Below, in pieces: positions 15,505 to 39,818 of a DNA stretch of 64,000 nucleotides. Made by a program: the position numbers and the translations under genes. Numbering within the stretch: position 1 is the stretch's first letter; every line of letters starts with the position of its first letter. The notes under the pieces are model-generated. The model did not search any database. It had not been told where the DNA came from and saw nothing but the letters and a program-made list of their open reading frames with translations. Source of the DNA: Phoronis australis (lineage: Eukaryota; Animalia; Phoronida). The stretch spans positions 150,051-214,050 of the forward strand of contig NMRA01000128.1 of assembly GCA_002633005.1 (NCBI GenBank), written 5' to 3'.

Positions 15505-18500
15505 TCAGTCCTTTTTCTTCTGCGTTTTTGGAGAGAAATAAGTTAAAATTGTCCTGGTTTTACGGGCTGGACTCTGAAAAAGAACAAAAGCAGATCATGA
15601 ACCCAGCTAAGACTTGGTTATTTAATTGTCGTGGTGCACACTTTTTCTCAAGAATACATGTTTCTTTACATTCTGGTGGCCAAGCCCAATTCTAAAGAGT
15701 TACAAATTATTAACAAAAACATCTTTATAACAAAGCCTGAAGAGTTACGAGGGAGAAAATCTGATTTCCTGACTGACAACTGACTTTTGGTATTGAAGCA
15801 ATGCCCTGCATGTGCTGTTACTGTTGAAAGTAAACAGGTGCAGTACTACCTTTTAAACGTCGTATTAACTTGAACACAATAGTTACCTCCAGGCTGGGCG
15901 ATGCTGGTCGACTTCTGGACGACACGGGACTGACCCCCTTACTGCCGCGTCGCTGCTGATTCAGACTGGGCGATGCTGGTCGACTCCTGCAAGTAACAGG
16001 ACTACCCCCCTCCCTGGAGTTGCGTCGCTGCTGACTCAGCTGAGTCAACCAATCAATCTTCTTTGGTGAATTCTCCTTATTGCTAGGTGGCACATAGATC
16101 GACCTGGGTTGTGGATTGAGAACGTAGTTTGGTAGATTGCTGGTAGGTGACTGAGGTGTGCCTCCAACAGCCTGCACCCAACCTGCTGTCTCCTCATGAC
16201 ATTTGAACAGCTTCTTTACAACATTGTAGTCACTGGACTCACGAAATACTGTCTTTGATTGCACATTACTTTTCACAGACTCATAATTGCACTTCTTAAG
16301 GGGTGGCATATGGCAACCGTTCGACACCTTAGCGCCATCTAACTTCCGTTTTACCCCACACTTGACAGGTGACAATGCATCCTGAATTTCACAAGCACCA
16401 TAGCTATCGGATGACTTCCGTGGGCTGAGAAACAAGTTTATTTTTCTCGGCGAGGAAGACTTTTGTGGTGATTTAAGATTCTTCTTCAGTAGTGCATACT
16501 TTGGTCCAGACTTTGGGCTAAGCCACTCCATGAGTGTTGGGAGTTTATAGGTGGGAGACTTGAAAGACTTTGTTACAGTAGGGACTTGTTGTTCCTGATT
16601 TGCAACTTTAGTTGACAAAGTAGATTGCGTGATAGAAGAATGGCAGTCAACCACTTGCTCGGACTCCGTACAAACCACTGCAATGTAAATATGTAATATT
16701 CACTGTTGAATAGTGTTTACATAGAAAATGTCAACCAAAACTAAACCAACTAGGATAGTCAAAGGTTTGTAACACTGGAAACACTGAAAATGGTCTCCAT
16801 GTCACTTTAGAAGATCATAGACGGCACTAACATAATTTAAACAGAATTCAAAGTCGCTTTGGAATAATCGAGAATATACAAATGATAAAATGATGAGAAA
16901 GGAACTCTGGATGCAATGAAATAAGTAAGGTTATAACCTGCACAATAACATGTAGTCAATTAAATTCTTGGTTCATATCATAAGACTTGTTGCCCGATAG
17001 TCCAATGAAATCAACATTGTAGCGCTGCACAGGACAAACATCTGCGTCACATCTTTAAAATAAAACGTGACTAATTCTGATGTGATAAAAACTCCCTAAT
17101 CATGCACTGTCATCAGGATACAGCTCTACCACCAGGACTGGCCGAGTCTCGCCGAAAGTGCGGCTTAGCCGTTACTCCAAGAGGATATCTCGAGTAGAAT
17201 AGACACGTTATCACCAGCATGAATTACTCACCTTTTTCACTAATTCGTCTGTGGGCTTTGCCAACAACAGTTGCTGGTTCGACTGGTATTGAACCATCAG
17301 ACTGCCAGATCCACATAGAATTATCATCAGATAATGTGGCTATCTATACAACAAAATGAGGAAATTGTAAATTCCAGAATTACACAAGACATACTTCTGG
17401 ATGCTCACACACCCATTACTATGCCAAATAAACCAATTCAGTGACATTTTTTGGCTGCTGTGCACCCACAATTTACAAGATGTGAACACTTTTATTTAGC
17501 CATGGCAGACTGAAAAGCCGATGACATTTATTTGATCAAGACTTAATTCAAAGTCCCAAACGAATACCAAATTAATGTCTTGAGAGTGCAATGACTGACT
17601 AGATGGTAGTTTTGGCCGAGAACCTACATAGACAAATAATGGCATAATACTGTTGAATGAAAGGAAACAATTTATAGCAAGAAAATTCATGGCAGAAAGC
17701 ATCACCTTGGTAGTGTCTGTAGGGCACCAGGAAACATCAGTCACCTCCCCTTGGTGTCCCTCCAGAACGACTGGACCACTCGTTGGCTCATTCAAGCACC
17801 ATATGTACGCCAAATCATCACTTGAACCACTCAGGAGGTATTGGTCATCAGGACTGACTGCAGCCTTCACGTAGAATGTAGCATTGCGGTGACCTCTGTA
17901 GGTAGCCACTGAAAGAACACAAAGACCAGTATGACACCAATATGTAAATTTATACGTTGGTCTAAGGGAAAGTCAATCATTTGTAACCTTTCTTATGGCA
18001 CATTAGCAGATGACATTTACAAATTCAAATTCTCAGAACTTACATGGGCCTGTTATACAAAATAGGTTAGCTTTTTTGCCTACAAACACTGCTTTAACAC
18101 AATGATGTCACCAAACCAAGTCAGATTAAAACGAGTGTATTTTAAGACACGCATCACGATTTCAATGCCTGAAAGGATCGTCTGCTCCACATTGAGACAA
18201 TGCGCAACCAAATAGGAAGGAGCTGATGTCAAAAAACAATAAGAAGGAAATCTGCCTCAATATTTTGGAAATGATACTCCATCCAAGTTTGATGGAGGAG
18301 AAACACCAGCGCCAGACAAGAGCAATGTCAGTTCAATGCACATGGAATACAAACGATGATACAACACTCTGGGCAGACCAAGACTTGTGCAATTTGGATA
18401 TTCAACAGACAAACATGCATCAAGTCTTAATCTCTTCAGGGTTCTCATAAGTAGCAAACAAGACACGTCAGTGACAGCCATGCAGTGTAGAGAACGCAGC

Positions 18501-21500
18501 ACAACTCGACACAAATGCAGTGGAATATTCTGCAACATCAAAGGCCAAAAACGTGCTACAGACTGGAAATTTCTTCAAAAATTTTCGGGCATTTTCACTA
18601 GGAGAGAACTTTCCTGTAAATGATTGTAACTTTTGTGCGCAACAGTTCATGCAGTTAATGAAGAAGCCTATCAAGGCATGAAACACGAGAGAACAACACT
18701 TTGCAGTACGCCAATTAAGGAAACCAAGTCATTTTAGATTGATTATGTAAATTCAATCTTGTCAAACATTTCGTAATAATAATAATAATTATAATAATAA
18801 TGTTTATTGTACATTGTAGGCTTTGCCTACTCATTCATAAATACATAAATTCAAATGTACGGTATATTCCGAATATTTACACGGAGAGCAGTTCTTCTCT
18901 TAAAGCCATAGCCTTCTGAATATACAATGTGAGGCGCTGGATGCTGTCATGATTTTTCTGTTGGAATAACCTAACAGGAGAATAGTTAACATTCACAAGC
19001 TCTGGTAGAAGATTTCTTCTAAGGCCTCCAAGAACAGGGCATCTACAAATGAAATGAGGCTCATCTTCAATTTCACCCAGACAGCATATGCCGCATATTC
19101 TCTCACCTCTAGGAATACCCATATGTCTCCCTTTCTCTATATTAAGTGAGTGACCTAGAAATACCCGTATGTCTCCCTTTCTCTATATTAAGTGAGTGAC
19201 CTAGGAATACCCGTATGTCTCCCTTTCTCTATATTAAGTGAGTGACCTAGGAATACCCATATGTCTACCTTTCTCTATATTAAGTGAGTGACCTAGGAAT
19301 ACCCATATGTCTCCCTTTCTCTATATTAAGTGAGTGACCTAGGAATACCCATATGTCTCCCTTTCTCTATATTAAGTGAGTGACCTAGGAATACCCATAT
19401 GTCTCCCTTTCTCTATATTAAGTGAGTGACCTAGGAATACCCATATGTCTCCCTNGATCTAAAAATCAATTTTGGCGCGTAAAAATGGCGGGAAAATTTT
19501 GCGACCTGGCATTTATGAATGCGAGCTGGATTTTGGAAATGCGACCTGGGATTCTGGCTAGGTCGCAAAATGCGACCTGGCGATTTTAATAGCGTCGAGC
19601 CCTGCATGCAGTTAATGAAGAAGCCTATCAAGGCATGAAACACGAGAGTACAACACTTTGCAGTACGCCAATTAAGGAAACCAAGTCATTCAAGATTGAT
19701 TATGTAAATTCAATCTTGTCAAACATTTCGTAATAATAATAATTATAATAATAATATTTATTGTACATCGTAGGCTTTGCCTACTCATACTCTTAAAGCC
19801 ATAGCCTTCTGAAAATACAATGTGAGGCGTTGGATGCTGTCATGATTTTTCTGTTGGAATAACCTAACAAGAGAGTAGTGAACATTCACAAGCTCTGGTA
19901 GAAGATTTCTACTAAGGTCTCCAAGAACAGAGCATCTACACATGAAATGAGGCTCATCTTCAATTTCACCCAGACAGCATATACCGCATATTCTCTCACC
20001 TCTAGGAATACCCATATGTCTCCCTTTCTCTATATTAAGTGAGTGACATGAACAACGAAACTGCGCGAATATTTTTCTTGAATAAGCGCTTAAACAATTC
20101 ACATATTGCTCGCTGACGAGATCGCATTTAATAAGACTATAAAATTCATATTCATTTAAGCCACCTATTTCCAGTTGCCAATCCTGTACGCCACAATCCA
20201 GCAATCTCTGTTTGAACAGAATTTTTGAAATCATTGTGTCCTCCCATTCCTCCATTACAATTCCTGTGTAAATAAATCATAAACTAATGTAACATGCGAT
20301 GACAGAGCGAACACTGTAAAAGGCCGGGACAAGTGCAATCTGGTCTCACGTGACAGTATTGCAATAATCACAACCTTGTACAGTGTGCAGGCATGCTGTT
20401 AATAGGATGCCAAACATGCAGAGACTTAATACTGAAGTTCGTCAAGCACTGTCTATGATATATATAGTAAAGGTTTAGTGGAAACTACTCGATCAGTCAA
20501 CTTGGCCCAGGGATCAGAGACGAATGTTGTACTGAATAACAGTCAACTTGGCCCCGGAACCAGAGGTGATTATATACAGAGTAGCAGTCAACTTGGCCCA
20601 CGGACTAGAGACGAATTTTGTACTGAGTAACAATCAACTTGGCCCAGGGACTAGAGACGAATGTTGTACTGAGGAGCAGTGAACTTGGCCCAGGGACCAG
20701 AGATGATTGCTGTACAGAGTAGCAGTCAACGTAGCCCATGGACCAGAGATGATTGTTGTACAGAGTGACAGCCAAGTTGGTCCAGGGAACAGATATCATT
20801 GTTGTAAAGAACCAGTCAGTTTTGTTTGAAGTTATAAACTACAAAGTACTACACCAGTATTTCCAGGATAATCACTAACCAAAGTACAGCCACTATCAAC
20901 AGTTTTCCGCATACCTGAATCCAACAACACCATGTCCATTCAGTCCATACGCTGCTGCCGCTGCTGCTGTGCGATGATGAAGAAAGCACGGATCTGCTGT
21001 AGGCCGGGACAAGTGCAATTTGATGAGGACACACAAATATTGCTCCTGACACGGCCTACTACAACCCACTTCAATGCGCATACATAAGAATAAAACAAGC
21101 CATAAACATTTCTTCAAAAGTCTCTGGCAATATACTGACCAATAACCCTGCCTCCATGGCCCAATCTGACCAACGTAAATTATAGGCCCACAAAACAGCG
21201 ATCAAGATATGCTGCGCACAAGCAGGCCGGGACAAGTGCAATTGGTTTTCAGTTAAAACACCCACTACTGCACTCGAACCCGCCTACATGTGCGCAACTA
21301 CGACTGCGCCATTACCAACAACCTCTTGATCCCAACTAAATGTACACAGAAATAACAGGCTCTTTTCAAACATACCAGTATTCAGAAAAAAGACACTTCC
21401 CCTGAATGGAAATTGATTCCACAAGAGAACTCCAGTTTGAACAAGCAAACTGGCTTGTCAGTAGGTGTCAGCACTGTGCCAACTAGGCCGGGACAAGTGC

Positions 21501-24500
21501 AATTTGAATCAAGAGTACAATATTGCACCCATACCAACCTAGCAGTCATAGCAATAGAATGTCTCAAAAACTGCGGCAAACCAAGCAGAGATGGTTAATT
21601 TCCACATGGACAACCCGTCTGATGGACACAAGTAGGAAACTACACATGCTCAGCAAAACGGATGTGACTCTTACCTGGCTGTGATGTGTAGCTTGCACAG
21701 TTGTACTCGTAGATAATATCATCCATACAGTTGGCAAACAGCCGTGTGCGTGAAGAGTCCATACAAAGGTTGGAAAATCCTATCAAACAGACGTGCCAAA
21801 GGATGGTTTTAATGAAGGAACTCAATTTTTGTTAGGGAAACCCCGATGACACACATGTTAGGCAATTCATAACACTGATCTGAGCTTAACAAATGGTAAC
21901 ATCCTGAAATTTGAGGCATTTTATAAACACATCCTGAGTTCATCGAAAGCAGAATTAGAAATTTTATAAACCATACCATAGTCTTTGGTTAGAACTTGAT
22001 GTTATAAGTTCTCAAGCATACAGTTAAGAAACTAAAATAAATATTGATAACAAATTTGTGCTTCATATTCTAGAACCTACAAGCACCATTAGAAAATAAC
22101 TGGCATTTTGCCCCTAAGCTTGTGCTAAAATCAAACCCTGCAAGCCAGTAACATTGGCACAATGTTTACTTGTTCAAGTATCAAAATAGTCCGATTTTGA
22201 CAATAAATCAAAACAACCGTATTATTTACTAAAGACCTCAAAGCTATCTATCACAAGGCACAGTTTTAAATAATTAAAGTTACTTGATTCAGGAAGTACC
22301 GAATTTTGAACTGGATTGTTCAAGTGTGAACTTAACTCTTCAATTCTGAACAATGAAATTTGGCCCCACTTCTTAGTCAGCCTTACCATGCTTGCGTATA
22401 CCAAGTCCAGCGTAAGTGAACAGTTGCCAGGGGACAGCAGTCGACTTTAGAATGCTGTAATTCTTTCGCAAATCCCAGACTTTGATATTTCTGGAAATTG
22501 ATAAGAATTGATTTACGATGGGAATTAATATGTGGCAACAACAAACATTCACTCGCTGAAGGTGTTGAAGGATGTGGTCTGAGGTTATCTCAGGATTAGG
22601 AGGTCTCAATAAATTTGTTGGTTAATCCTCCCTCTTGACAATTTGAACTTAATTGAATGAGCATGGAAATAAATTTCAGTTCAGTTCAACAAAAACGCTA
22701 AGTTCCTCAAGTTTGAGGAAACGTCTTAAACCAAGAAATGTAACATCCAGGAAATCAACTCTTCCGTGAACAACCGGATACAATTATCTGATCTAAAATG
22801 CCTACAATTTTATCTTCAATTTCATGCATTTTTTGAGGCATTTTTCTTTGCAGGTAAAAATAATCATCTCATAACAAATAAAGTCCTTCGCAAGTTTGTT
22901 ATTTTTAGGCAGACTATTTCAGTTGTATTTCAGTAATCTACACACCCGTCAGCAGCACCAGCTGAGATGAGGTAATGGTCATCTTGAAACAGGACTGAGG
23001 TCACACTTTGTTGGCTGGATTCTTGAGTGATCTGTTTCACACGTCGTCTGCTCTTCTGGGTGATGCTCTTGTCCACCAGTGAGTGAGCATTGCGTATCTG
23101 ATTGACAGAAGGAATGGAACCATCTGTAAAAACATGTCAATCTATCACAGTCTACTATGAGGTGACACTACACAGGTAGCAAGAGCAGGGGATGGAAATG
23201 ATTCCAGCCTTGATACTCTAAAACTTCAGTACTGGACTAGCAAGCACCGAACACACAGTTAACGGTGCCCCTAAACTCCACACGTGCACTGACAATACTA
23301 CATATCTGAAAATTCTTCAAAACCAGTGAGCAGGTGTGGAGCAGTGTCAGTACTGGAGTTTAGGGGATGAAAACCATGTACTACGTAAGCCAACACCAGT
23401 GTGTACTATCTCACTAGTATTGAAGCATGGTCATGGGATCGTTTCTATCCCCTGAAGAAGTACTATGCAAAATTTCAAAACCTTGCCAACTACTAAATAC
23501 AACAATAAGGTTATTTGTGCTTTCATTTAACACAAATCGAAGTGGTTAAATTACTGTTAAGAAAAAATATGTCACTTGTATAATAGTATTCTAGCATTAC
23601 CATTGGATGTGTGGATAGTATTCTAGCATTACCATAGGATGTGTGGACAAGAAACAATGGAGTTGAGATGGCAGCAAGGTGCTACAAAGTGTTAACAGTT
23701 CACTAAAGGACCAACAAACAAATCACTGACACCCCACTCGTGGGTCTCCCTACCAATCAGGGGAAATGGGGCAAAATGGCAAACAGTCCACTAAAGGACC
23801 AGCAAACAAACTCACTGACATTCCACTTGTGGGTTTCACTACCTACAGGAGAAGTGGGTCAAAACGGCAAACACAGTTCACTTAAGGACCAGCAAACAAA
23901 TCACTGACACCCCACTTGTGGGTTTCCCTACCGATCAGGGGAAGTGAAACAAAATTACCATATTATTCAAGGTTCACATAAAGACCCTCGTCTGTAATGC
24001 GTAAAACCAGCATGAGAAATCTCAGGCAGAGTGCTGCTGTGCAGTATCATTTTAGCACCATAAAGTCAATATAGGTGGGACAAAACTCAAACTTTGCTTT
24101 ATCTTGCAAAAATGTCTGAAATATTAATCCAGGCTGTACATACAAATGACACCCACCAACGAAAAATAGAAGCAAAATATAGTTGTTCATAACTTAGACA
24201 AAACTCATGCTGAGTGTGCAACAGGAACAGTTCAATTACATTTAATGAGGTTGTTCCCAGCTTGAATATTCAGTGAACAGACAGAAATGAAACCGCTCAG
24301 AGGAGTGAAACTTGGCGAAATTAACCGAAAAGACGATGATGACAACGATGATGATTATGATGATGAAGGTGGCAATTATGAAAAACACAATAATATACAC
24401 ATGACTAGTGAAGATGTCACAAATCAGTAAGAAATAGGCTACAGTCTTAAGCGACACTTGGCGAAATTAACTGAAAAGATGATGATAGAGATGACGACGA

Positions 24501-27500
24501 CGATTATGATGATGAAGGTGGCAATAATGAACAACATAACATTCATATGACTAGCGAAGATGTCAGAAGCAGTAAGAAATAGGCTACAGTCTTGTTACTA
24601 GAAGTTAAACCAACATCAATGCAGCAAGAGCGCTCAACAAAGGAACACCGCTATCAGAAAATATCAAATAATTCGAAAAATAGACGTCCTAGCGAAAAAT
24701 GGAAAATATCTTCTGAAAGCCCGTTCAAAGCTCTATCTAACATGTTAGTTTTGGAAAATTCCGTAAATATTTTGAAAAAATAGAAATTTTGCATTTTGTT
24801 TCGAAATTCAAAGTCAAATAATTCGAAAACGTTAAGTCTGAGAAAAAATTTGTTAGAGTTCATTTGAAAGGACATATCTCAGAGAATTTACATGCAAAAA
24901 TTCATGTCATTTTCTCTTCCTGTTTAAAGAGCCCCTCCCCCCCCCCTGCACGACTTAAAATGGGTCAAAATGTGCCTTTTTAGCAACAGATAATAGCGTG
25001 TCATAGAAAACTAACACCTGAAAAATTTAGAAGCAATTTGTCCTATAATGCGCCCTCTACAGGAGAAAACGTTTTTTTTGCCTGAAATCGAAGTGCACAT
25101 GAGCAATTGCCAATATTTCCGCCAGTGAGTAAACAATTTCCTGCACATCTGTAGCAAACAATGTCAGAGCAACATACTTGTCCGAATTCAGCCAAGTAAT
25201 TAATGTAGGTACAGTCCACAAGTTGATTATTCTACAGGATTGCTAAACTCTGTAATTAGACTTCACTGGGTGGCAGGTCAGTGAGAAGGTAGCACAGACA
25301 TATATTGAGCAGGCAACACAATACAACACCACAGGTAGGCAGCAGACAACACAATACAACACTGCAGGTAGGTAGCTCATTAAGCCACAGCTACAATGGC
25401 ACTCCTATCACTGTTGGCAAACTCACAATGAAGGAGGGGCTCATAGCACAGGGTTGTAACATACACTGCAGCAATCTTATCAAGAAGATAACAGGTATAG
25501 CAAAAGTTTTCAAGAGAAACATTTGGTCTCCATACAGGTGAGCCAACAGACTGGTGTTGATGGATATTAAACATAGACCAGGTGTCTAGACTCTACACTT
25601 TGAGAAAATTATCTTACATGAAAAGCAGGGGATTTGACATTTGAAGGTAACCATTTCACAGTTCCATGGAAAGAAGGGTTTCCTACACAGTTCAGTTGAG
25701 AGAGCTAAGTTCTAAGATCAATAACCTCTCCTCGAGACTGAACTCGAGAATTGACCAACCACGTGCACACTGAGAGAAAACCTTTGAAGTTCAAGCAATG
25801 TGAATGACTTACAACTTACAAGTTGTGTCAAGAGGACAGTGTGATAGTCTCTGGCCAAGCTTCATCACAATCACGCAAAATGGAAAAACGTCTCTACATG
25901 AACCAAGTGCACTGTCCAAAACCATTTCAAACGAAGTGAGCTACTACTACTTCAAGAATGTCAAGTGTTCCCAAGTTCTAAACTCATCAACTCTTCTGGA
26001 CGGATCCTTGTGAATGGGAAATGTCATAAGTTCTGAACTCATCAACCACCACATGAAAACATTCTGTAGCCGATAATCACAAAACACAAAAGTCTCAATT
26101 TAAAACCATTTCTGCTAAGCACAATTTCCAGCCCATTAAATATCAAGACGAAACATTTTAATTCCAACATTCAGTCCTTTGCAATTTGTTAAAAACAGTT
26201 GCCATTTTAGAGCAAACCACCTACCTTTACTGGCACACCGGCTGTCCCATACCATGATATGTCCATCACGCGACCCACTGGCAAAGACATCTAAGAGTAG
26301 AAATCAAGAGAATAGTCCACATCACTCCTTAAAAACCATCTACACACAACTAGAAAGACCTCTTCTCAGCCTCAACCAGTCAGGTAAAGAGATGGCCAAT
26401 CCTTACAATGGTCCCTATGTCACAGAATACTAAAGATGCTGGAGGGAAAGGTTTATGCCAGAGGGAGCTCTCAACAAACCCAACTGTCAATGGTCAATCC
26501 TTACAATGCTCCTTATATATCAGGGAATTATAAATTAACAATAAATGCTAACCACAATGTTCAGGAGAGGTCCAGGAGAAGACACCTCATCTCAGCAAAC
26601 CAAACTGTAGAGTAGAGATGATCAATTCAAACAATGGTTCCTATATCAGGAAACCATAATCTAACACTGGTCATTAGTTGGGATGAGAGAGAGCAGAGGG
26701 CATGAGTACAAAGGCATGGTAGGCTTGAACTGTGTTACGCCTATTGTGGAACACTATATAACAGTCTGAGTACAATATACATAGCTAGTTGGAGTGGATG
26801 GGCAATACAATACATTCTGTATTCATGGGTATTCGAGTGTGAAAAGGAGGGAAACAGGGTAACACTGCTAGCTGATATAGCCAACAGATTACTGAAGCTC
26901 ACAAGACAAACACAGAACAGTCAGACTGTTAAAACATGACACTTTTGACCTTTATGAAACATTTCAGATTCTATACAGAGATGTCGACAGGTAGAAATGA
27001 GTATGTGCTCTCCTACACATGTCAATACTTTAAAACACTAAATAACTTGGAGGCTGAGTGACAACAGTTCCCCTATCAGTAGGCACATGCACGTCTACCA
27101 TTCTTATATTAAGACTAAGCAGTGTTTCAACCTCATTCTTCATAAAAGACCATGATTTTCAACACTAGGCCAGTATGTACCATCCATGGAACAATAGAAA
27201 GTGACACTAACAGCCCGGCCAAGAGACCAAATCCTAGTTCTGCATTCACATCCACTGACCAGCAAAGACTGTGCCCAATAGGGAGTATAACAGTGTCTCC
27301 TTAATGGAAGGAAATGCAAAAGCAAAATGTGGGCCCTCTCCTTGGCTGTTTTCATTACTTATAGTGTATGGTAGTACAAATCCCCCAAGTACACAGTAAT
27401 TAACGAGGAAATGTCACAAGATAACCAGGGATCCGCATGCTTTACTGCAGGTAATATCAAAACTGGTACCTTTTCCCTTTTTAAGGAATGCACAGAAAGC

Positions 27501-30500
27501 AGTGCGGGTTTATTTACCTTTACTTCCAAGCTGGAAGTTGACAGTTTTCACACTGCTCACGTGCCCTTTGAAAACGCACAGCTTCTCTTTGCTCGTTACA
27601 TCCCAAAACGCCACAGTCTGATCACCGGATGCCGTCAACAATTTGTTGTCTTGTTGTGTCCAGGCAATATCAAACACAGCATTCGAGTGGGCCATCCAAT
27701 CTAAACAAATCAACATCACTTCATTCAATACAAACATTTCAGAATGACTTGTCTTAACAGCAGGAACACATTTCAAGTATTAAGATGCTTTACCGACGCA
27801 TCGATGTAAATTGCAAAAGTTAAGAAGAGGATTTCCATTAGCTTTGGTAGTTAACAAACGTCGAAGTATTTACTAGGTGGCGCTATGGGCATCAAAGTTA
27901 TTGAAAGGTGGCAGTAACATGAGCAGTCAACACATTGTTGACAACAGCACTGACTGACCCCAGCAAAAACCTTGGATAACATTAAAGACGCTTTGACGTT
28001 TCTGAGTTAAATCCACCTGTTTACTGTGAAGTAAACTTAACCTCATTGACAAGCTTGTGTACTTAGCTAAATATCTACAAAACTATAGATATTAAGTCAG
28101 CAATTTAGAAAGCCTTAGAATTTTAGTTTTTATTGTAGACAAATCTGTCGTTAATTTGGTCATGAAACATATTTTTAATGAAATTTATCAAAAAAAAATA
28201 ATAGCAAAACTACGGTATCGATAACACAACCAAATTTCATTTGATATAAATGTTCTAGATGAAATCTCAAAAACAATTTTCTAAACTATCATTTAGTTTT
28301 CACTTTTGCAAATTTTGTTGATTTTTCAAATAAACCATAGTCATATTTTTGATAACCCCTCAATAAAACGCTGAACATTTGAAAACAATTCCTTACAGGG
28401 TTTCTAGAACACAGCATAAAACGTATCTGGAAGTTTCATTTGAATCTGAACAGCCATTTCCGAGATATTATCTCTGAAGTTAACTTGGTCCATTTTTGCC
28501 AGGGCCTTACATAGCCTTTAGTGAGAACTCTTAAGCAAAAAAATAATTCATGACTTATTAATGCTATTTGATTAGGCATTCCCATAACAGACTAACCAAA
28601 GTTGTTTAAAATGTGAACTTAATTCCATATCAAGACTGACTAGCAATTGTCAAATCCTTTGCAAAACTGAGCAGGCTACGATTGCTAAGCTTTACCAACA
28701 GAAAAGACTTCTGCATACTATACCTCATATAGCACTTCTAGACAAAACTTAACTCGTCCCATCTCCAACTTACATGAACTAAGAGACTCGTCTCCATTCT
28801 TGTTCGTGTTGAACAAGCGGACACAGCCATCTTCATCAGCCACAGCAAGGACATGCTCAGCGCTGGGAACTGAAACAAAAGACAACTTTTCTGCCTGGAT
28901 GCACTCAACTATAGACACATTTATGAGGCACACTTGACATAGAACAGTTGACACGGAACAGCGGATCAGGCGCAAGTTTGTGTATAAACACCACCGACAC
29001 GGAGCAAATGACAATGCAGCAGCCATTTTTGACATCGGTTTCAAGGTACCTAAACTACATGGTCAACGGACTTATAAACACGGGCACGGACGCATGAACA
29101 CGACTCACGGACCTGAAAACACGGGACACGGACTCCGTTCACGAGGAAACACGGTTAACGGACCGCCAAACACGGGTCACGGACTCATCGGCTTCCTGGG
29201 TCAGCTGACGTCTCCATTTGTCCGTAAACTGTGTTTGGCGGTCCGTTAACCGTGTTTCCTCGGGAATATGAGTCCGTGTTCCGTGTATTTGGGTGCGTGG
29301 ATCGTGTTTTGTGAGTCCGTTCCCGTGTTTGTGAGTCAGTGGACGGTGTTTGCAGGTCCGTGAGTCGTGTTCATGCGTCCGTGGGCCGTGTTTATGAGTC
29401 CGTTAACCGTGTAGTTTAGGTACCTTGGGTTTGAGAGGAATAGAGCAACTTGCTCCAGTGTCAATTACATGTCTCAACACAAACTGAGGTACGGTGGAAC
29501 TCGTGGAAGGGATCATTCTTGATCGCACATGCTCAACAGCGTACATAAGGGACATCATATTGTTTTGTGTGATCATCACGGTTAATCTGAACACACGCAG
29601 ACTTTCGCATAATTGACTTACGGTGTAAATGCGACTGAAGTAGAGCAACTCGTGCTGTGTCAAGTGTTCCACGTGTGAAAACGTCTTATGTTCCGTACAT
29701 CTTCTGCGTACTTGATTGCCCTTTCTTATGCTGATTTAGTTTCACCATTAAATCAAATCGAAAGTGACCTATCATGTAATTCTCAATATTATCGAAAATA
29801 TCTCAGAAAACTGTAGCAGCGTTTTCGAGACTTCTGAATTTTTATATTAAAGAAAACTTGGACACGTTGATACTATGGTTTTGCTACCGCGGTACCTTCC
29901 TTTCTTGGCAAATTTTACTAAAAAAAACATGGTCACATGTCCTAGCTAATTAAATTTTACAGGCTTTCTATCTTCAAAAAATATACTTTAATTGAATTAA
30001 AATNCCCCCGCCGTAAGCCAGGGATAGGGGGAACCCGTGCCCTATTTTTTTAGGTCAACATCATGAATACTTGTGGCTGGCGTACCCATGGAGTATCTCT
30101 GGGATAGGGGAACCTCTTCCTAAACTTTTTAGGTCAAAATAAAACCCATAATGGGTGACATCCCATCCAACGTACTAGGTAATTTTAGAATCAGTAATAA
30201 CATACTACTTTGACATTGATCATCAGTTTTTCTTTTCTTTTCTTAAGGCAAACGTTTTTACTTATGGTACATTATGAAAAGGAACTGTGCATGACATGAA
30301 TAATAAAAAGTTCCGTCTGTGTAATTGTATTTTATCAAATGCGGGGGTTGAAAAAAGAGAAAGAAAGTATTTGGGTAATAATGTTTTGAAAATGGCTAAA
30401 AGTTTTCAGATGCTTTAGCCATTTTTCCTAATACCTTGAAAAGTGCGAGCCTAGCATAATATCCATGTTTCACAGCAATACCACCAGCCATTTCTGAAAT

Positions 30501-33500
30501 ATCATCTACCCAAGTCAACCAAAATCTGGACATTTTTCTGTGGTAGTACCTAACCTTAACAGGATTACCTAGACAGGACTTGTATAGCCTCATTTGGTGC
30601 AGGGTACAAGGCCCAGTGTTAAGACCAAAGCAGACAGTCTTTACTAAATAATGGAATTGGTAAGAGTACCTAACAAGTCACAGTGCTGAGACTTAAATTC
30701 ACAAGTACACAATATCCCTTCAACTCAAGTTTGAATGGACCTCATCAAACAATCAATTGTTGACTCTAGGAATAACCTCAAAGTGGCAAAGAGGAATTTA
30801 AGAACCCAAAATAGATTTATTACATAACATTAGGCAAGGTGAGGAAACCGCCACATGAATGTGTACACCATCTGTCACCAACCAAGACCAATAACAGTCC
30901 TTGTATACATCAACGGACTATTTAAACCATCACAGACACTCCACACTTGGAGTAGTAAATCACATGACCTCATCAATAGAATTTGGCTGTAGGTTTTGCG
31001 GCAAGACCATTTTCACCTTTTAGGTGGAAAAATTTTGTTCTATGAACTAAAGCTTTGATAGCTTGCTAAGAAAATGCAGTTATAGTACTGCCATACAAAG
31101 TACTTATGGATCACCTCCCTTGATAACGCTTAGTTCTAAAGTTTGACAATTTGCAAGGTGGCGGCCTACATCAAGTGTTGAACCTTACCTGTACAGAACT
31201 GACACGCGAATGGTGGCACCCAGGCCTGAAAACAAAAAAGATCAACTTCATAACAGTCACCATCAGAACTTATAACAGATGATTACAGATAACAAAGCAA
31301 ACATTACATCAACGCTGTTGGGTCAATGTTTTTGTAAAGAGAAAAACCAAGGCAATGCATACCTCAAGCATATTCACCTGATCTCTTTGTTATGTTGATT
31401 AAGCATTTTTGTCATATTACTCAGACACTGGGCAGTAGAGTAGCAGATTTAAGGCCTTTTCACACTAACTTAACTCTGGTATAAGAAGAGCATTGAAGTA
31501 AACTGAGAAGTAAATTTGAACTGTTCATACCAGCTTTGTTAGTTAATGGCATCAAAGTGAACAATGAGTGACACACTCATCATCAAAGTAATTGCAATGT
31601 AGTGCCGATGAATCCCTTGTGCAGCTTTTTTATGAGACAATTGAAGATCTTTTACAATCCAGGACCAAAGATAACCGTTCATACTGACCGCAACTCCCCA
31701 AAACATTGATGGATCGGCGTTAGTATAAAAGGGCCTTTAGTGAAACACACTACACTAGCATAAGCTACATACATATCTGTGTTAGAACCAGGCTTCGATG
31801 ATTCGTCTGTTATTTCACACAAAAAAGAAACACCAATATTGTCATTTCCCAATTCTTTAAAAGGATAACTACCATGCTTCAAATAATAGCTATTTGATCG
31901 AGTGTAGTTAAACAGTGCAAAACGTGTTGAGAATGGTGGAGTTTTATTTTGTCACGAAATTTGACAAAATTTCACCTTTCTGTCAGTGCCTCATAGTGAA
32001 GTGTGAATAATTACCATAACAGCAAGGGGGCGCTAGACCACTGCTGTTTCACTAAATTTCATGAGTTAGCCACCAGTTCACAACTTTAATATCCTTATCA
32101 GTATACACTCCTTTTTCATGAGACGTAAAACAAACACTAATGTTCACCCTAAAATACTGTTTTTTACACAGGTCAGGTCTTATAAAATGAAGTAACTCTC
32201 ACACAATCAATAAGTTTAATTAGATAGGTGAAAGAAAGGTACTTAAAATGACCATGAGTATAAAAGCTATTACAGGAGTTAGTGTCTGCTGTCAGTGCAA
32301 AACATCACGAAAGGTCAAGTGCATTATTGGCTTGCACCATTTGGACAAGACAGTAATATTTCGATAAACAACTGACTGTGTATATAGAGCACACAATAAA
32401 AGTACTTCTTTGTCTTAACTAATTTAGCTTTGCACATTTGTAATGGTCTAAAATTTCTCACAATAATTATCTGGCACATGTAACCAGGACACACAGAGCA
32501 GAAATGTTTAAGTATCTTTTCTATTTTAAAATTTCAAAACTAAATCTTCAGTAGGCCTACTATGTAGTTCAACAGTAGTGACAATATTGACAGACCTTGG
32601 CTGCACGTCAAAAGTTCTCAACTGGTCAAAATACTTCAGAAAAACTACCAAAGCGATAAAACAATGCTGTTTATAAAATCCGTGATAAGTTGGTCCCAAT
32701 AGACGTGGTTACTCGGAGGTGTGCAGGACCTGTTTCTAAGCATCAAATCTGCATTTATTTGCTCTGTTATCAAGAGTACCAAGGTGTACAGACCCAGGCA
32801 GAACAAACACGCCTTTCATGGACCAGGACAAAGCGTGAAATGCCTTGACAGAAAATCGATACTGCTTGACAAGAGTGGAGAGCAGGTACAGCCCAACACA
32901 CTTGTTGATTCAAGCTGAATGCCAACAGTTTAACCATAGATAATTGGATGTTTAGCTTAATGGGATGGTGGCAAGCCATTTTTATAAGCTCAACACTCAA
33001 CAATGTCCTTGATTGACTTGAATGTGTTCAACTGAGCAGTTGAACCTTTATCACTTTAAAACAAAATATTACCTGTCATGAAAACCACATTTTTAGATCC
33101 ACAGCAGATTCCATAACACAACCCGTGAATGAGTTGCAGAGAGTGAGGGTTGACGATCCCCACTTTAAATGACTGTGAGATTGGCCTGGCTAGGTTGTTA
33201 TATGAGATGTTTCATTGTTTGACCTTGTTCCCTTCATTCTTAAGTAGGTAATGTAGTGAGCCATATGAATGAGGCATTACACACAGCCAGTTAAGAGATC
33301 CAATAGCGACAGAATAAAGGGGCTATTAATACCCACAGGAGGTGAACTGAAAACTTTGTGTGAGTAACACTGGCCAGGAAAATAATGACCAATCTCTGCT
33401 GGTTAGATAATCAAACTTTCAACTTAATGAACAACCCAGTTTCTTACAAGACAGAGCTAGCGTACCATACACGATTCCCTTAAACCATCATAAACTACAA

Positions 33501-36500
33501 GAAAAAACGCTGCATCAAAATTGACAAAATTAAAACTCATCAAACAGTTAACAACTACTCTCACATTCTTTTATCCGGCTGGACTTGAAAGACAACGCAA
33601 CTGGAGGTCAACGTGAATATAAAACGACACATGGCAGGTGAGACCTGGTGATTTATGAGCCCAATACTCCACTTTGTTAGGACCCACAAATACACCCAGG
33701 TACATTCACATAAATGCCACTTACCTCTTCTTCCCAACTTTCAAATATGTGCTGCTGGTCTTTCAAACACACAAACTTTTCCAAAAGGCCTTTGCAAGTC
33801 CAGGTGTAGCCTGAAATTGCACCAGTAACTAACAGTTGTATCCAGGTGCGCTGTGCATTTAAAACAACAAAATACTAACGTTTCCACAAGACACAATCAA
33901 AGCTTATATAACATCCATGGTGTTCTTGTTTGATTCTTTGAAGGGTTAGAGGAACTACCTGGCAGAGTGCCAGCTCTACATAAAGATAGTCACATTGACA
34001 GACAGTAACCAAAGGGTACTAGTCAAATCCAGTCTACAGCCTTCACAGAATATCCACTCAACTCATAATTCACAATACCAACCAGTTTAAAGCAAAAAAA
34101 GCAACAGGGCACCGGTTAAAATAATGAATATCCTCTCGATAAAAAACTTCAAGACATGCCTTATGTCTACATCCAAAACGATGTTAAGAAAGCAACTCTG
34201 GTTCAAATTATTCACCCACGACAGGAATTGCAATCTCATTCTTATACCATACTTCAGTCAATGTCAAACCAATACTGGAGAACTGGTTTAGGACATATCA
34301 ACCTGATCTCCGACTCCAGCTACAAAATACCCTAGTTATATTGTAACTCGATCCCTGTGTACAATCATGTCTCCAATATTAGCTATGTGGAAAATGGTAA
34401 ACTTTTGGTACAATTGCAGGGAAAATTAATTTTGAATTAGTTTGTAATACAGATAACATGCACATTTGTTTCACAAGAATTCCTAATATCATTTTTCCCT
34501 CAAGATCCCAATTAAGTATTTTTTTGTAATGTGCAGTTTGTTTTGCGAAGTGTGTTATAGTTTACAATTTGCCGATTCACATTTAAAGGGAATTTTCCCT
34601 TTTACGGCTGAAAAACACATGTTTAGGTCTAGGATTGTAGTTGGAACAGAACTCTCAAAGTTGACCAGGATTATGAAACAAAAAACAACACTCACCGATG
34701 TCTGCTTGCAATTCACTGAAATCATGGCTGGTGACTTGGCCAGATAAATATTGTAAACATTCGGGTTAACACCCTGGGCGGTTAAATTTTCGAACCCAAA
34801 AATTTGGGGGGTGGGTGGTTAACCAGACATGGGCCATTAAATGCGAAATTTCAAGAAATTGCCGGTGGGCGGTTAACCGAACATGGCCGCTTATTATGAC
34901 AGACAACCACCCTGGGCGGTTAATCTCACATCACGATCCGAGTCCCCACAGGTATTGGGAACGCGTAACACTTGCAAAGAGCCTTATCGTCATGAAATAC
35001 GTACCCTGCGCACTCTAACTAACACAGTTTCGAATTTGTGGACAGTGGTCAAGTTCTGAATGTTTGTATAGAAAGTATGCTGCATAGTTCAGCACCTCAG
35101 ATAAGAACGATTATTGCGAATTCTACTCTTAATTTCACTATACTTCGCAGACATTGGTGAACATGTTCACCAACGCAGCAGGCGGTAGCTGCGCTGTCAT
35201 TTTAACCCAGTTGTAGTGATGCGCTGACCCATTTTTCCTGTTTGATTAGTGCGCACGTGCAAGCTTCACGTGTTGCAGAGGTCACAGCATAGATTAAATT
35301 TATGGTTGAAGTCCTGAGTGCTAGCTGTCCAAGTTCTGAGCAAAAAAGCAGTTTTAATATTAGTTGTAATATAAGTTTGAAAACTTCATTCAGATTTAAT
35401 TGTTTTTAGCGCTTGTGATGCTCATGTTCGAGACTCCATGACTCAATGAATTTGTTAAGGTATGGTTTACATGCGGCTGTCTTATTCCGGCGCTGCGCAC
35501 TTCCCGTAGCGCGAAACATGCTACGGTACACAATGACAACAAAAATAGCAGGCAAGCGGACATGAGACAGTTGTCAATCAAAACATAACGTACTCGTCCA
35601 GGTTACCACCCATTTTCAATTTTTCATTTTTAAGCGCCCATGCTCGGCTTACCGCCTACCCCCAATTTTTTATGATTGTGACCTCCTTAAAAGTGTGTGT
35701 GCTTTTTTGAACGTTTGTTTCGCAAAACTAAGATTCCAAAACATGCGCAACTCGCTTTTAAACCTTTCAATGACAATCAATCAGTTTTAGTGGAACCGGA
35801 AACTTGCTTTACTATGGTGGTAAAATACCCGTATTCTCATGCACTTTACTGAAGGACACAATTGTTTCCTTTGGCTCACGCACGGAACTCATGTCAGCAT
35901 GTACTGATCATTGAGACAGCACTTGTCGAATGTATTTCATTGCCATGATAGAACCAACAAAGCGGTACTTGAAAAGAATTTCAAGTCCGTGGTCTACCTT
36001 TCTGGATTCCCCATGACAGTACACGAAACATCACCACCCTGAGCAATGAAATAAAAAAAAACACAAGCGCACTCGGCTGGTTCATGACCAACGATTTTGG
36101 AAACTTCACCGACATTATTTTGGACGCAATGTTTTGAATACAAGCAGATACGGACCATTGTTCCGTGTCTTTTTTAAACGCATGTTTTTAATGACTCAGT
36201 CGTGACCCCAAAATGGAAGTGCCCAACCAAAAGCAAAAGCGCAAGAAATCAAATTGTAATTAAGCGCAAGTCGAACATTCTATCCACATTTATATGGTCA
36301 AAAACTTATTTTTTGAACTCTTGATTTGCCTGTTGACTTTTTACATAATTGCGTATTTGCTTTTTTATATGTGATTATGCTTCATTATTTTCGCAGCCGA
36401 CTGACCACCCCCATTGCTTAATAGTAGTATGGTGATTGTTGAGTAGTGCTTTGATGAATTCTGGGAGGTGGGTGTTGACTGTTCAATACAGAAATATACA

Positions 36501-39418
36501 GACAATGTATACAAAATGTTACATTGTTCGAACTAGGTTCAAAGTATTTAGAAGAAAGACCAGCTGTCAATCATTAGCACGTTTTGTTGCAGCACATCTT
36601 TACAAAATCACCTGCTTCCCCTAGCAATACATGACGATCTAGCGTAGTCTTGCGTGATCTTGCTTTTCTCTCAAGAAACTTGTCCTACTGAAGGCACGTC
36701 TATCTGTCAGAATGCCTTAGTTCCAAGACAAGACGAGCAGAGACCGAGGTACATAAAGACCCAATCATGCTCGGGACCACGGTGCCACTGTATTGTGTGC
36801 GCTATTTCACTTCAGCCCGTCGAAGTCTGTTACTTCAATCCACAAACGTATATTTTAATTGACACGTTTGAAGTCCAACGTCAGTGTAGCTCAGTAAGGG
36901 TAAAATCGGTCCTTTGTAGAGTAAGCACCCACTCCCGACTTTTCAAAAATTTTGATTTTAACCGCCCATGCTCGGCTTACCGCCCACCCCGTTTTTTAGA
37001 TTCCCAATTTAAGCACCCTAGGTGGTAACCTGGACGACCGCAACATCATTACTCAAGAACAAGTACTTGCTTAAGATTTTATTTTAAAAAAAATACTAAT
37101 AACTTTGACTGAAGTCCGAGGGAAAATTAGTTTGTACACGCAAGGTGTCGGTAAAAATAATTCATAGACAAAGTCCGAATTATTCGGCACCCCTGTTTTG
37201 CTATGCGACTAGTGACGACATCTAACCAGCAATGCGTCCTTACCAGCCTCCCATTCAGTAACGCTAGGATCTTGCTAAAAAGCAATACTTCGCGAGATTA
37301 CATGAGATATTGCCATGTATTTAGAATAAAAGTATGTGACTTTGGCTAGATTTTAGCCAAGACCTAGAGTAGTTCCTAGCGTTACTGAACGCAAGCCTGT
37401 ATCGAAAGACAGACATCCTTGATAACTCGGCACTTACATGCATCAAAATAGAGAGAATTTAACACCTTTTTTTAGTTATGGGAATTCTTGAAAATCCGAG
37501 AGCTTCCAACCTAAAGCTTATTGAGAGGGTTGGCAAAACCACTGTCTAGGCATTTCTCTGGCCTGATTATTTTGAATATATGTTTTATCTAGTGCACTGC
37601 AGTCAGAAACTCAGTGCAGCAGACAGCGTGGCTGAAAGTGGAGGTATTGATGCGGGCATACCTCTTGTTCCTGCAATCCAAAAGAGCACTATACTCTCGA
37701 TTACAAACATGAAATTTGAACAGGATGTAGTTTAGATGCGGGCACACCTTCTCAAGTTCTTTTCTCGAAGCCAAGGCCAAGTTTTCATGGCGAGTTTTCG
37801 ATTGTCCAGAAAGCCAAATTGGGAGATTCATGTTTTTACAGTTGCANTTTCCCAAATGGTCTTTTGTCTACTTTCTGATGTTTTTGCCACGATACGATCT
37901 AATAGTACATGGGTGGCACCGCAGCACTGAAAAAAGTGGGGTTATAGTCTCCACCTGCACCCTATCAAGCCAGTGTTTTCTACAACTTGTTTTGACTTGT
38001 CGCTGCATCGAGTTTGAATTTTACCATGACGAGTTTGGCTCACTTGCGTAGAGTTTAAGTATTGGGAGATTTAGTCATTTCTTAAGCAAATTAGGAAATT
38101 TTGGACTTTTGGTACCAGTTCAATGTATTTATTTCAAACTCCCCACAGTATAAGACTTGAACACATGTACATGAATGTTGAAATTCAAGTTGAGTTTGAA
38201 TTTTCTGCCGAGACCACTGCATGCTATGATGTGCTGCCCATGTAGTAGTACTCAGGGGCATATCCAGAATTTTTGGTTAGGAGGGGGGGGGGCAGGACAA
38301 AGTATTAGGTACGATTTTACCTGTAAGATATTTGCACCCTTGAACTGCCAAATGAAATCTGAGCGAGTTTTAGGGGGGCCTTAGTCCCCTTGCCCTCCCC
38401 CAAAATCCACCAATGTCTTGTAGTATGATGTGAAATTTCCTCCTAGCTCAGGTGCATTTATTTCTAAGCTGATGTGTTGTCTTTGCTCTTTTCCTTTTAA
38501 GCTGTGTAATCCATTGCTTTCATCTAACATGGGGTTGATGCTCCTGTTCCATTTACTAACAAAACACTTAAAACACCAATATCTCAGTAGAAATTGATCC
38601 AAATTGAATATAATACATACCACCATGTTCGTCTGAATGAGACAAATCTTTTGATATGCAGCGCATGTATATTCTTTTATTTTTTACGAAATTATGTAGA
38701 AAGGCAGATATTTTACGCATGTTCGTCGCGTTTCAATGGCCATTTTCTTCGTAACCACTCACCCAATTTTTATGATTTTAACACCATTTCATTTCTCACA
38801 CCAAGGGCTTTTCAAAAATGTATGACATGTGGCAATCTAAAAAAATTTAAAAAACGTCCTCCCTAGTATTTGTCGAGTTGTAAGACATGGACGGCCTCCT
38901 AGGCTAAGCTAAGGTGCCTATGCGCAAAAGGTAATTATAACAATGTGACTTAGATGTTTTAATCAGTGAGAGGCTTAATTCGTCAAAAAGCTGCCGGCGT
39001 ATGAAACGCTTTGGAGCTTCACCATCCAGACAGTCGAGACGTGGGCACTGTCTGTCCGTTGTCCTCCCTATCATTAGTCAAGTCGAACGAGTGTTTGTAG
39101 TGTAAATTTCAGGGAACAGTCACTGTCCATCCAGGGCATAAATTTTTACCTTTACAAGTGTTTTTTAGCTCAGTGAATGTTTAAAAACGTGATCATTTGC
39201 TTAATCACGATATTGCATGCTTAAATCAAGAATTCCAAAAATACCTATTCCAAGTTCACGCACGACATTGAACACCTCGTGGTGACGATTGCTGTGCACT
39301 GGAGTAGCCTAGATAATATACGATATATTTGACACATTAATTTACACACTTTTGACTTACCCAGTCTAGCGGGGAAGTAGCCGAATTCCCTTGCTCTGAG
39401 ATCGTACAATGACTGCAT
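15505..39418 (-). CDS. DTL: Denticleless/CDT2, WD40 substrate receptor of the CRL4 E3 ligase, 695 aa, 13 coding exons
   Basis: Exons 39418-39361 (MQSLYDLRAREFG), 33810-33725, 31225-31189 (AWVPPFACQFCT), 28869-28774 (EHVLAVADEDGCVRLFNT), 27700-27518 (WMAHSNAVFDIAW...TASGDQT), 26290-26225 (FASGSRDGHIMVWDSRC), 23123-22946, 22490-22387 (IKVWDLRKNY), 21779-21675, 17908-17706 (FYVKAAVSPDDQYLLSGSSD), 17343-17232, 16677-15887, 15573-15505 (RTILTYF, PIP box). All are GT-AG with consistent phases (2088 nt). Confidence 0.95.
18775..19154 (-). mobile_element. 5'-truncated non-LTR retrotransposon 3' end (copy 1)
   Basis: ORF 18877-19122 carries the ORF2 C-terminal Cys/His motif RICGICCLGEIEDEPHFICRCP. 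The 3' UTR has the hairpin GTAGGCAAAGCCTAC, AATAAA and a (TTA)n tail. Confidence 0.75.
19109..19454. repeat. 46-bp tandem repeat, about 7.5 copies, ending at an N
   Basis: Unit CTAGGAATACCCATATGTCTCCCTTTCTCTATATTAAGTGAGTGAC at 19109, 19155, 19201, 19247, 19293, 19339, 19385 and 19431. It is derived from the LINE coding sequence. Confidence 0.9.
19731..20255 (-). mobile_element. 5'-truncated non-LTR retrotransposon 3' end (copy 2)
   Basis: ORF 19785-20255 (...AQFRCSCHSLNIEKGRHMGIPRGERICGICCLGEIEDEPHF) with a (TTA)n tail. Near-duplicate of copy 1. Confidence 0.75.
20319..20376 (-). ncRNA. mir-92: pre-miR-92 hairpin 4 (3p GAUUGCACUUGUCCCGGCCUUU at 20340-20319)
   Basis: The 3p arm matches miR-92 (AUUGCACUUGUCCCGGCCU). 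The 5p arm AGGUUGUGAUUAUUGCAAUACU pairs with it, and the basal stem is ACACUGUA/UACAGUGU. Confidence 0.93.
20494..20810. repeat. Degenerate 45-46 bp minisatellite, about 7 copies, inside the miR-92 cluster
   Basis: Units starting CAGTCAACTTGGCCCAGGGA at 20494, 20540, 20585, 20631, 20677, 20723 and 20769. Confidence 0.8.
20999..21057 (-). ncRNA. mir-92: pre-miR-92 hairpin 3 (3p AAUUGCACUUGUCCCGGCCUAC at 21020-20999)
   Basis: miR-92 mature sequence, paired with the 5p arm AGGCCGUGUCAGGAGCAAUAUU. Confidence 0.93.
21222..21285 (-). ncRNA. mir-92: pre-miR-92 hairpin 2 (3p AAUUGCACUUGUCCCGGCCUGC at 21243-21222)
   Basis: miR-92 mature sequence, 5p arm AGGCGGGUUCGAGUGCAGUAGU, and basal stem GUUGCGCACA/UGUGCGCAGC. 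Confidence 0.93.
21483..21540 (-). ncRNA. mir-92: pre-miR-92 hairpin 1 (3p AAUUGCACUUGUCCCGGCCUAG at 21504-21483)
   Basis: miR-92 mature sequence. The 5p arm AGGUUGGUAUGGGUGCAAUAUU resembles vertebrate miR-92a-5p (AGGUUGG...). Confidence 0.93.
23186..23454. mobile_element. MITE
   Basis: TIRs CAGGGGATGGAAATGATTCC and GGGATCGTTTCTATCCCCTG, an internal IR (CTAAAACTTCAGTACTG / CAGTACTGGAGTTTAG), and similar flanks AAGAG and AAGAA. Confidence 0.6.
23694..23955. repeat. About 90-bp tandem repeat, 3 copies
   Basis: Unit starting ACAGTTCACTAAAGGACCAACAAACAAATCACTGACACCCCACTCGTGGG. Confidence 0.75.
24310..24592. repeat. About 145-bp tandem duplication containing (GAT)n-like runs
   Basis: ACTTGGCGAAATTAAC...GTAAGAAATAGGCTACAGTCTT occurs twice. 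Confidence 0.7.
29042..29427. mobile_element. Foldback or palindromic MITE in DTL intron 3
   Basis: CAAGGTACCTAAACTACATGGTCAACGGACTTATAAACACGGGCACGGACGCATGAACACGACTCACGGACCTG is mirrored at the right end. Internal CACGG subrepeats. Confidence 0.8.
35594..37037. mobile_element. Non-autonomous DNA transposon in DTL intron 1
   Basis: TIRs TCGTCCAGGTTACCACC and GGTGGTAACCTGGACGA, with the subterminal direct repeat CGCCCATGCTCGGCTTACCGCC near both ends. Confidence 0.65.
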
Positions 39419-39818
39419 CGTTCAAAGATATCTTAATCCAACATTGTAAACTTTATCGCACTTAGAGGTACGACAGAGTTCACTAACTTTCTGTCGCGGC
39501 TGCATCAACTTCGGCTACGCGCCAAAGTGACGTCACGGTTTCTTTGGAAATCTTCAGTTTTTGTTTAGAAAGAATTCGTTAATTTAGTTAACCTTATGAA
39601 TAGATAGCACAGTTTGACTGCCGTTTTTTTTTGTTTTCAATGTTTTGAAGAAACTTAATTCTCGACCGAATGAGATTGTGCGTTGCTAGCCGCCATTATT
39701 CTTTTGAGAGGGATGTTGAACTGATGTAGGGTCATTTATCAGACAACATCTCTGTTGTGTGGTATCATTGTAACTATCTTATTGTTGTACGTTACTCCTT
39801 ATTGTCAAATCTTCAAAG
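39419..39818. promoter_or_regulatory. Bidirectional DTL/CCT4 promoter and 5' UTR region with an E2F site and a CRE
   Basis: Divergent ATGs 400 bp apart. GCGCCAAA (reverse complement TTTGGCGC, E2F consensus) at 39519-39526 abuts the palindrome GTGACGTCAC at 39527-39536. Confidence 0.7.

Follow-up and report, generated by a model that had tools for sequence, protein, structure and literature searches.

A predicted miR-92 hairpin cluster in intron 9 of Phoronis australis DTL, and the recurrence of miR-92 in introns of S-phase genes

The human miR-106b~25 cluster lies in intron 13 of MCM7 and carries a MIR-92 member sense in a replication gene of the RB-E2F class, and human miR-17/92 is under E2F control (PMC3824591). 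Homotypic miR-92 clusters, sense in introns of RB-E2F or DREAM hosts, are recorded for Ciona, sea cucumber, echinoderms, amphioxus and oyster, and clusters of 3-6 copies for limpet, Ciona and sea cucumber (PMC11848845). The lophotrochozoan Biomphalaria glabrata expresses four intronic copies within ~650 nucleotides (nt) (PMC12261956). In Drosophila, miR-92a/b lie inside jigr1, are co-expressed with this host and are active in dividing neuroblasts (PMC4441384). Here we analysed 64,000 nt of Phoronis australis DNA (GCA_002633005.1, contig NMRA01000128.1, positions 150,051-214,050 of the forward strand; hereafter the window), in which intron 9 of the gene DTL/CDT2 contains five predicted miR-92-type hairpins. 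The cluster resembles the human one in its intronic, sense position in an RB-E2F replication gene. It differs in that the human cluster mixes microRNA families and lies in MCM7, whereas the P. australis cluster has one seed, lies in DTL and belongs to a protostome lineage. Its homotypic, sense layout is that of the invertebrate clusters above, but DTL is the host in none of the rows used from the host table of PMC11848845. The layout also matches that of Biomphalaria, although the mature sequences of the two animals differ (PMC12261956). We consider it likely that the pre-mRNA of DTL is the source from which the five hairpins are cropped; the amount of miR-92 would then vary with the DTL promoter, which is predicted to be driven by E2F in S phase.

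The DTL coding span (15505..39418, minus strand) comprises 13 exons with GT-AG splice sites and a 695-aa open frame for a WD40 protein. Its named best matches are the denticleless proteins of Lingula (506 bits), Tubulanus, Owenia and Lineus. In a tree of DTL proteins, P. australis lies outside the molluscs and its position among Lingula, Owenia, Lineus and Tubulanus is poorly resolved. The transcript evidence consists of raw RNA sequencing (RNA-seq) reads from three runs of one study (X2, X3 and X4), labelled with the window's species. These reads are mostly 90-99% alike to the window, suggesting that they come from another individual or a close relative. Eleven of the 12 DTL joints are present among the RNA-seq joints listed, and intron 3 is placed by its AG/GT sites and the reading frame. 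The gene model and RNA-seq agree on exon 9 (21675..21779) and on exon 10 (17706..17908), which encodes a WD40 repeat; both are on the minus strand. Intron 9 between them (17909..21674, minus strand; 3766 nt, GT-AG) contains all five hairpins, and its joint 17908|21675 was read in each of the three runs (4, 9 and 2 reads). First mates map to the plus strand over DTL, which in this stranded library denotes minus-strand RNA, and the neighbouring CCT gene shows the mirror pattern. Since intron 9 is spliced and the RNA is minus-strand, the hairpin cluster is sense within the intron, as an earlier sequence-only reading of the window had claimed.

That reading was prompted by an exact 19-mer at 20321, 21001, 21224 and 21485 with unrelated flanks. 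No further site with up to three mismatches is present in the window; shuffled windows are expected to hold 0.02 copies, and none of 100 shuffles reached four. Folding placed each copy on the 3p arm of a hairpin, again as claimed, and the loops and 5p arms have diverged among the four copies with pairing retained. The predicted precursors, all on the minus strand and with mature 5′ ends assigned by analogy in all five hairpins, are hairpin 1 (21483..21540, 58 nt, mature 5′ end 21504), hairpin 2 (21222..21285, 64 nt, 21243), hairpin 3 (20999..21057, 59 nt, 21020) and hairpin 4 (20319..20376, 58 nt, 20340). A length of ~60 nt had been proposed, which suits hairpins 1, 3 and 4 but is exceeded by hairpin 2. 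The 84-nt windows around the four copies fold at z -3.8, -4.7, -4.5 and -4.7, the fold of hairpin 2 reaches z -7.3, and the four most stable 90-nt windows in a sliding fold of intron 9 are the four hairpins. The predicted folds pair 21, 19, 19 and 17 of the 22 mature bases in hairpins 1, 2, 3 and 4, and the predicted precursors have 2-nt 3′ overhangs. A canonical pre-miRNA is a hairpin of about 60 nt in which 16 or more mature bases are paired and the 3′ end overhangs by 2 nt; the predicted folds have this shape, with lengths of 58-64 nt and 17-21 of 22 bases paired.

The sequence AUUGCAC, which is assigned as the MIR-92 seed (10.1101/2024.12.01.626237), occupies 3p positions 2-8 in all five hairpins; the predicted mature product of hairpin 4 begins with G and has the same seed. 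The mature arms of hairpins 1-4 agree with the Rfam mir-92 3p consensus and with 30 hairpins from other animals. The Rfam model RF00464 (mir-92) matches these four at E values from 1.7e-7 to 0.011 (37.3 bits and E 1.7e-7 for hairpin 1; 23.0, 22.7 and 27.2 bits for hairpins 2, 3 and 4), and the top Rfam match of every one of the five is mir-92 or a family with the mir-92 seed. Seed and mature similarity uphold the earlier identification as MIR-92. Of the Microprocessor motifs (basal UG, apical UGU/GUG and CNNC), CNNC is found at +16, +17 and +18 in hairpins 1, 3 and 4 (three of four, p 0.003 at a background of 0.095), and hairpin 2 has none at +16 to +18. All four have an apical motif, UGU in hairpins 1, 3 and 4 and GUG in hairpin 2, and two of the four (hairpins 1 and 4) have a basal UG at -13.

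The four-hairpin count had overlooked a fifth, diverged miR-92-type hairpin (18373..18433, minus strand; predicted 61-nt precursor, mature 5′ end 18394). It was detected in the sliding fold of intron 9, with z -4.4 to -5.0 and 20 of 22 mature bases paired. Compared with hairpin 2, its mature arm has five changes, every one at a paired position, and the seed is intact; a basal UG lies at -14 and a CNNC at +15. The window contains 15 matches to the seed, and only five combine a 3′ GGNCT signature with a 3p hairpin fold. The other ten ATTGCAC sites lie outside the cluster hairpins, and folding gave no 3p hairpin with z under -2.5 at any of them; one is simply hairpin 1 read on the other strand. 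An Rfam scan of the whole window at the gathering score recovered none of the hairpins, because their mir-92 scores fall below it. These scores, together with the drift of hairpin 5 at five positions, would fit copies that are inert repeats or decayed microRNA pseudogenes. We regard this explanation as very improbable, since four copies with unrelated loops and flanks agree at 19 mature-arm bases, many other animals have hairpins with this mature core, and the processing motifs stand at the expected positions.

The predicted regulation of the cluster lies at the DTL promoter. DTL is arranged head-to-head with the CCT gene, ~300 nt apart, and the 330-nt spacer holds E2F and CRE (cyclic AMP response element) motifs. 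The E2F consensus TTTGGCGCG (39518..39526, minus strand; binding predicted) lies ~100 nt upstream of the DTL start codon, and a CRE palindrome (39528-39535) adjoins the 9-mer. The window contains four such 9-mers, which gives a chance of about 0.02 of finding one in the 330-nt spacer. Human DTL is on both an RB-E2F list (PMC9090780) and a DREAM list (PMC6753476). In the proposed mechanism, Microprocessor (Drosha) would crop the five hairpins out of the DTL pre-mRNA and Dicer would release 3p products with one shared seed. The 3p arms would enter Argonaute, miR-92 output would climb with E2F activity, and the several copies would raise the dose of one seed. In the same runs, the CCT gene is covered several-fold more deeply than DTL (head-to-head region 39480-39715), suggesting that the shared spacer is unequal in its two directions.

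Real hairpins could also be transcribed from a promoter of their own inside DTL, independently of the host. Many miR-92 clusters are intergenic and hence need their own promoters, and an E2F-like 8-mer (21572-21580, minus strand) lies 40 nt upstream of hairpin 1. This 8-mer is one of eight in the window and its position is probably due to chance. The exon-9 donor is ~135 nt from hairpin 1, leaving scant space for a separate promoter. In a tree of 36 hairpin rows, drawn from 18 of the 37 sources after removal of near-duplicate loci, the four window copies grouped in 0% of bootstrap trees, which fits an old cluster that moved as a block, perhaps together with its promoter; however, the tree has poor resolution, and good support is confined to 2 of its 33 branches. 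The cluster may have arrived as one hairpin that later expanded or as a block. No intronic transcript was seen over 20476-21139, which argues against an internal promoter only weakly, because cropping would destroy such a transcript. In addition, the enrichment of E2F genes among miR-92 hosts described below would be hard to explain if hosts were irrelevant. We therefore consider an independent promoter unlikely and favor transcription of the hairpins with DTL. Some observations weigh against this reading. The RNA-seq runs gave zero depth over 20476-21139, although this is uninformative as to co-expression. All five Rfam scores (37.3, 27.2, 23.0, 22.7 and 15.4 bits) are under the gathering score of 47, and the match of hairpin 5 (15.4 bits, E 3.2) is non-significant. 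Finally, a lone E2F motif arises by chance in such a spacer at 2-4%.

Host and microRNA might serve a common end. CRL4-Cdt2 degrades inhibitors of cyclin-dependent kinases (CDKs), and its substrates include CDT1, p21 and SET8. In vertebrates, miR-25/92 represses p57 and Bim. Both could thus lower CDK inhibitors, and DTL and miR-92 may push in the same direction at G1/S. The cluster may also act on its host. Two 7mer-m8 matches to the miR-92 seed, 28 nt apart, lie in the coding sequence of DTL exon 12 (16258..16292, minus strand). They may provide feedback of miR-92 on DTL, although sites of this class are weak and a chance occurrence is possible. Host repression has been shown for fly miR-92 and jigr1 (PMC4441384), whereas P. 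australis offers only these two coding-sequence matches.

To place DTL among other hosts of MIR-92, we used the table of microRNA hosts in 34 species (PMC11848845, Dataset S1). The rows used were all 115 'Mir-92-o' places, all 12 rows of sea cucumber, all six of human and some of those for four otherwise-named species; hagfish is the only vertebrate outside human. The sense hosts in amphioxus are mcm5, mcm6, wdr76 and one unnamed locus. In Ciona they are mcm7 (3 copies) and pola1 (4 copies), and human Hsa-Mir-92-P2c is in mcm7. The host is topbp1 in three echinoderms, xrcc3 in sea cucumber (6 copies), psmc3ip in oyster and og0001515, or jigr1, in fly (PMC11848845, PMC4441384). The amphioxus hosts are spread over four chromosomes, suggesting separate placements. 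Seven of the 10 distinct sense hosts (MCM5, MCM6, MCM7, POLA1, TOPBP1, WDR76 and PSMC3IP) are on the RB-E2F list of 488 human genes (PMC9090780, Table 1, whose tick marks are lost in the text), and an eighth, XRCC3, is on the 268-gene DREAM list (PMC6753476). The host class had been proposed before the table was examined, and DTL itself was kept out of the counts. For comparison, other microRNA families have 54 distinct sense hosts, of which pold1 alone appears on the RB-E2F list (Fisher p 1.5e-6 against MIR-92); these 54 come from four table parts, namely amphioxus, sea urchin, oyster and part of Ciona. The p value is 5e-5 with the three MCM genes taken as one, 8e-6 with two antisense invertebrate hosts entered as misses, and 3e-7 against the 139 hosts in Table 2 of PMC11848845, 5 of which are on the list. 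Mir-4818 in acorn-worm mcm7 was left out of the MIR-92 count. The hairpin in pold1, the exception in the background, is labelled Mir-96-P2i/Novel-16 and is sense in its host (oyster NC_047559.1:11693494). The sequence-only reading had suggested that the DTL host could be a parallel way, beside MCM7, of coupling miR-92 dose to the proliferation programme. The E2F site at the DTL promoter and the host enrichment support the idea of coupling, but DTL is not a lone parallel to MCM7; such hosts number at least eight.

On balance we favor the view that miR-92 moved repeatedly and independently into introns of RB-E2F or S-phase genes across Bilateria, with MCM5, MCM6, MCM7, POLA1, TOPBP1, WDR76, PSMC3IP, XRCC3 and DTL as hosts, and that selection re-attaches the seed to a class of promoter while the host is free to change. 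An intergenic miR-92 cluster would have been kept in most of the invertebrates tabulated, while extra copies landed in introns in separate lineages. The intronic copies would then survive chiefly in hosts of the RB-E2F class, and DTL would be a further such landing. Small nucleolar RNAs (snoRNAs) switch hosts between lineages yet stay within ribosome and translation genes. The same class-bound hopping would apply here to a microRNA and to the E2F/S-phase class, as an analogy only.

A different account would accept co-transcription with DTL and attribute the choice of host to insertion bias toward genes active in the germline or early embryo, with no selection related to the cell cycle. Insertions that are inherited would arise in dividing germ cells, in which genes of this kind are expressed, and repeat insertions are indeed found in intron 9. 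Such a bias should hit other families too, and only one of their 54 hosts is on the list; furthermore, housekeeping genes far outnumber replication genes. The other families were mostly born in place and never moved, making them an imperfect control. We consider insertion bias alone improbable and retain selection for the promoter class as the preferred explanation. Several facts nevertheless weigh against it. The RB-E2F list consists of human genes and is a mere proxy for regulation in invertebrates, and the background covers 4 of the roughly 97 parts of the table. Most of the control families never changed host. In the rows used, MIR-92 is intergenic in limpet, tick, nematode and acorn worm, most other species have one such cluster, and four of the six human loci are intergenic. 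Fly jigr1 and the unnamed amphioxus host are off the list. The metagenome loci described next add two further points of this kind.

A scan of metagenomes with a 20-mer yielded 36 miR-92 loci, 24 of them under 5 kb. Two to four copies are present in 11 of the 36, or in 8 once near-duplicates are merged. The homotypic multi-copy cluster that the earlier reading had emphasized is thus present in P. australis, but it is a common layout in invertebrates and not itself unusual. Three loci, from other animals, have a fumarylacetoacetase-like gene encoded on the other strand, and the miR-92 cluster begins shortly beyond its 3′ end (L003:10641-14258, L010:10422-14764 and L020:1894-5793). A carboxyl transferase gene comes next in L003 and L020, indicating a conserved and apparently intergenic position. 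Moreover, a Pfam search of the 300 best-ranked of 1196 sense open reading frames (ORFs) from 21 metagenome loci found no replication-gene domain; it returned only transposases, reverse transcriptase, the downstream carboxyl transferase gene and sub-threshold noise. Two coding-like exons lie sense and downstream of a single miR-92 hairpin in L028 (3380-3823 and 8201-8488, minus strand), and also in L008, with none displayed upstream. A weak likeness of the L028 exons to the kinetochore protein PMF1/Nnf1 was not confirmed by Pfam, Atlas (best 0.88) or PDB (PMF1 E 0.4), and this candidate host was not counted.

It had also been suggested that the position of miR-92 in a DTL intron be followed across animals, and no such synteny was found. 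None of the 36 metagenome loci was matched in tblastn by any of 122 DTL-like proteins, a result to be read with the short length of the 24 loci under 5 kb, and the peptides of the DTL exons likewise gave no tblastn match to the 36. The other genes of the window had no match in 20 masked metagenome loci. The name 'dtl' is absent from the 34-species table of PMC11848845 in the part used, where annelid and brachiopod MIR-92 rows are missing. A literature search that covered few subscription papers and did not include MirGeneDB found no record of DTL as a miR-92 host. The miR-92 family and this type of cluster have been described before; for DTL as host and for hairpin 5 no such record was found. 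No statement of the recurrence of RB-E2F hosts was found in a search that again covered few subscription papers, and an earlier notice is possible. The words 'replication' and 'cell cycle' do not occur in the main text of PMC11848845, and its later datasets could mention the host pattern.

Repeats have probably altered the spacing of the cluster within intron 9. A recently duplicated repeat unit with a 46-nt tandem array (18648..20047; ~950-nt spacing, copies 96-97% alike) lies between hairpins 4 and 5, and a 46-nt tandem array of 6.9 copies (20494..20810) lies between hairpins 3 and 4. Given the ~950-nt duplicated repeat between hairpins 4 and 5, the five hairpins were probably once nearer one another. 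The duplicated unit (18648-20276) also carries an ORF fragment with a CxxC...HxxxxC motif and no Pfam match, which resembles the end of ORF2 of a long interspersed nuclear element. Elsewhere in the window, three copies of the H/ACA snoRNA SNORA57 score above the Rfam gathering threshold (43944-44076, 48241-48373 and 51844-51976, plus strand). They lie in the region of the CCT gene, which starts near 39700, and are likely intronic; this TCP-1 family gene is presumably CCT4-like. On the other side of DTL, an exon-like ORF without a Pfam match (13115-13330, plus strand) belongs to a gene that converges on the DTL 3′ end. This ORF resembles the C-terminal part of an HD-domain phosphohydrolase.

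Ancient intronic microRNAs have mostly stayed with a single host gene for more than 500 million years; in the rows examined in PMC11848845, for instance, hnRNPK is repeatedly the host of miR-7 and POLR2H that of miR-34. In contrast, miR-92 appears to change its host but not its class of host. If this view is correct, DTL would be the first replication gene to be named as host of a multi-copy cluster in a protostome, and the association of the oncogenic miR-106b~25 cluster with MCM7 in human would be one instance of a rule and not an accident. The rule would also predict the sites of unannotated miR-92 copies in new genomes, so that the ancestral function could be tested by genomics alone. Recurrent placement under S-phase promoters would then be a clue that the ancestral job of miR-92 was tied to proliferating cells.

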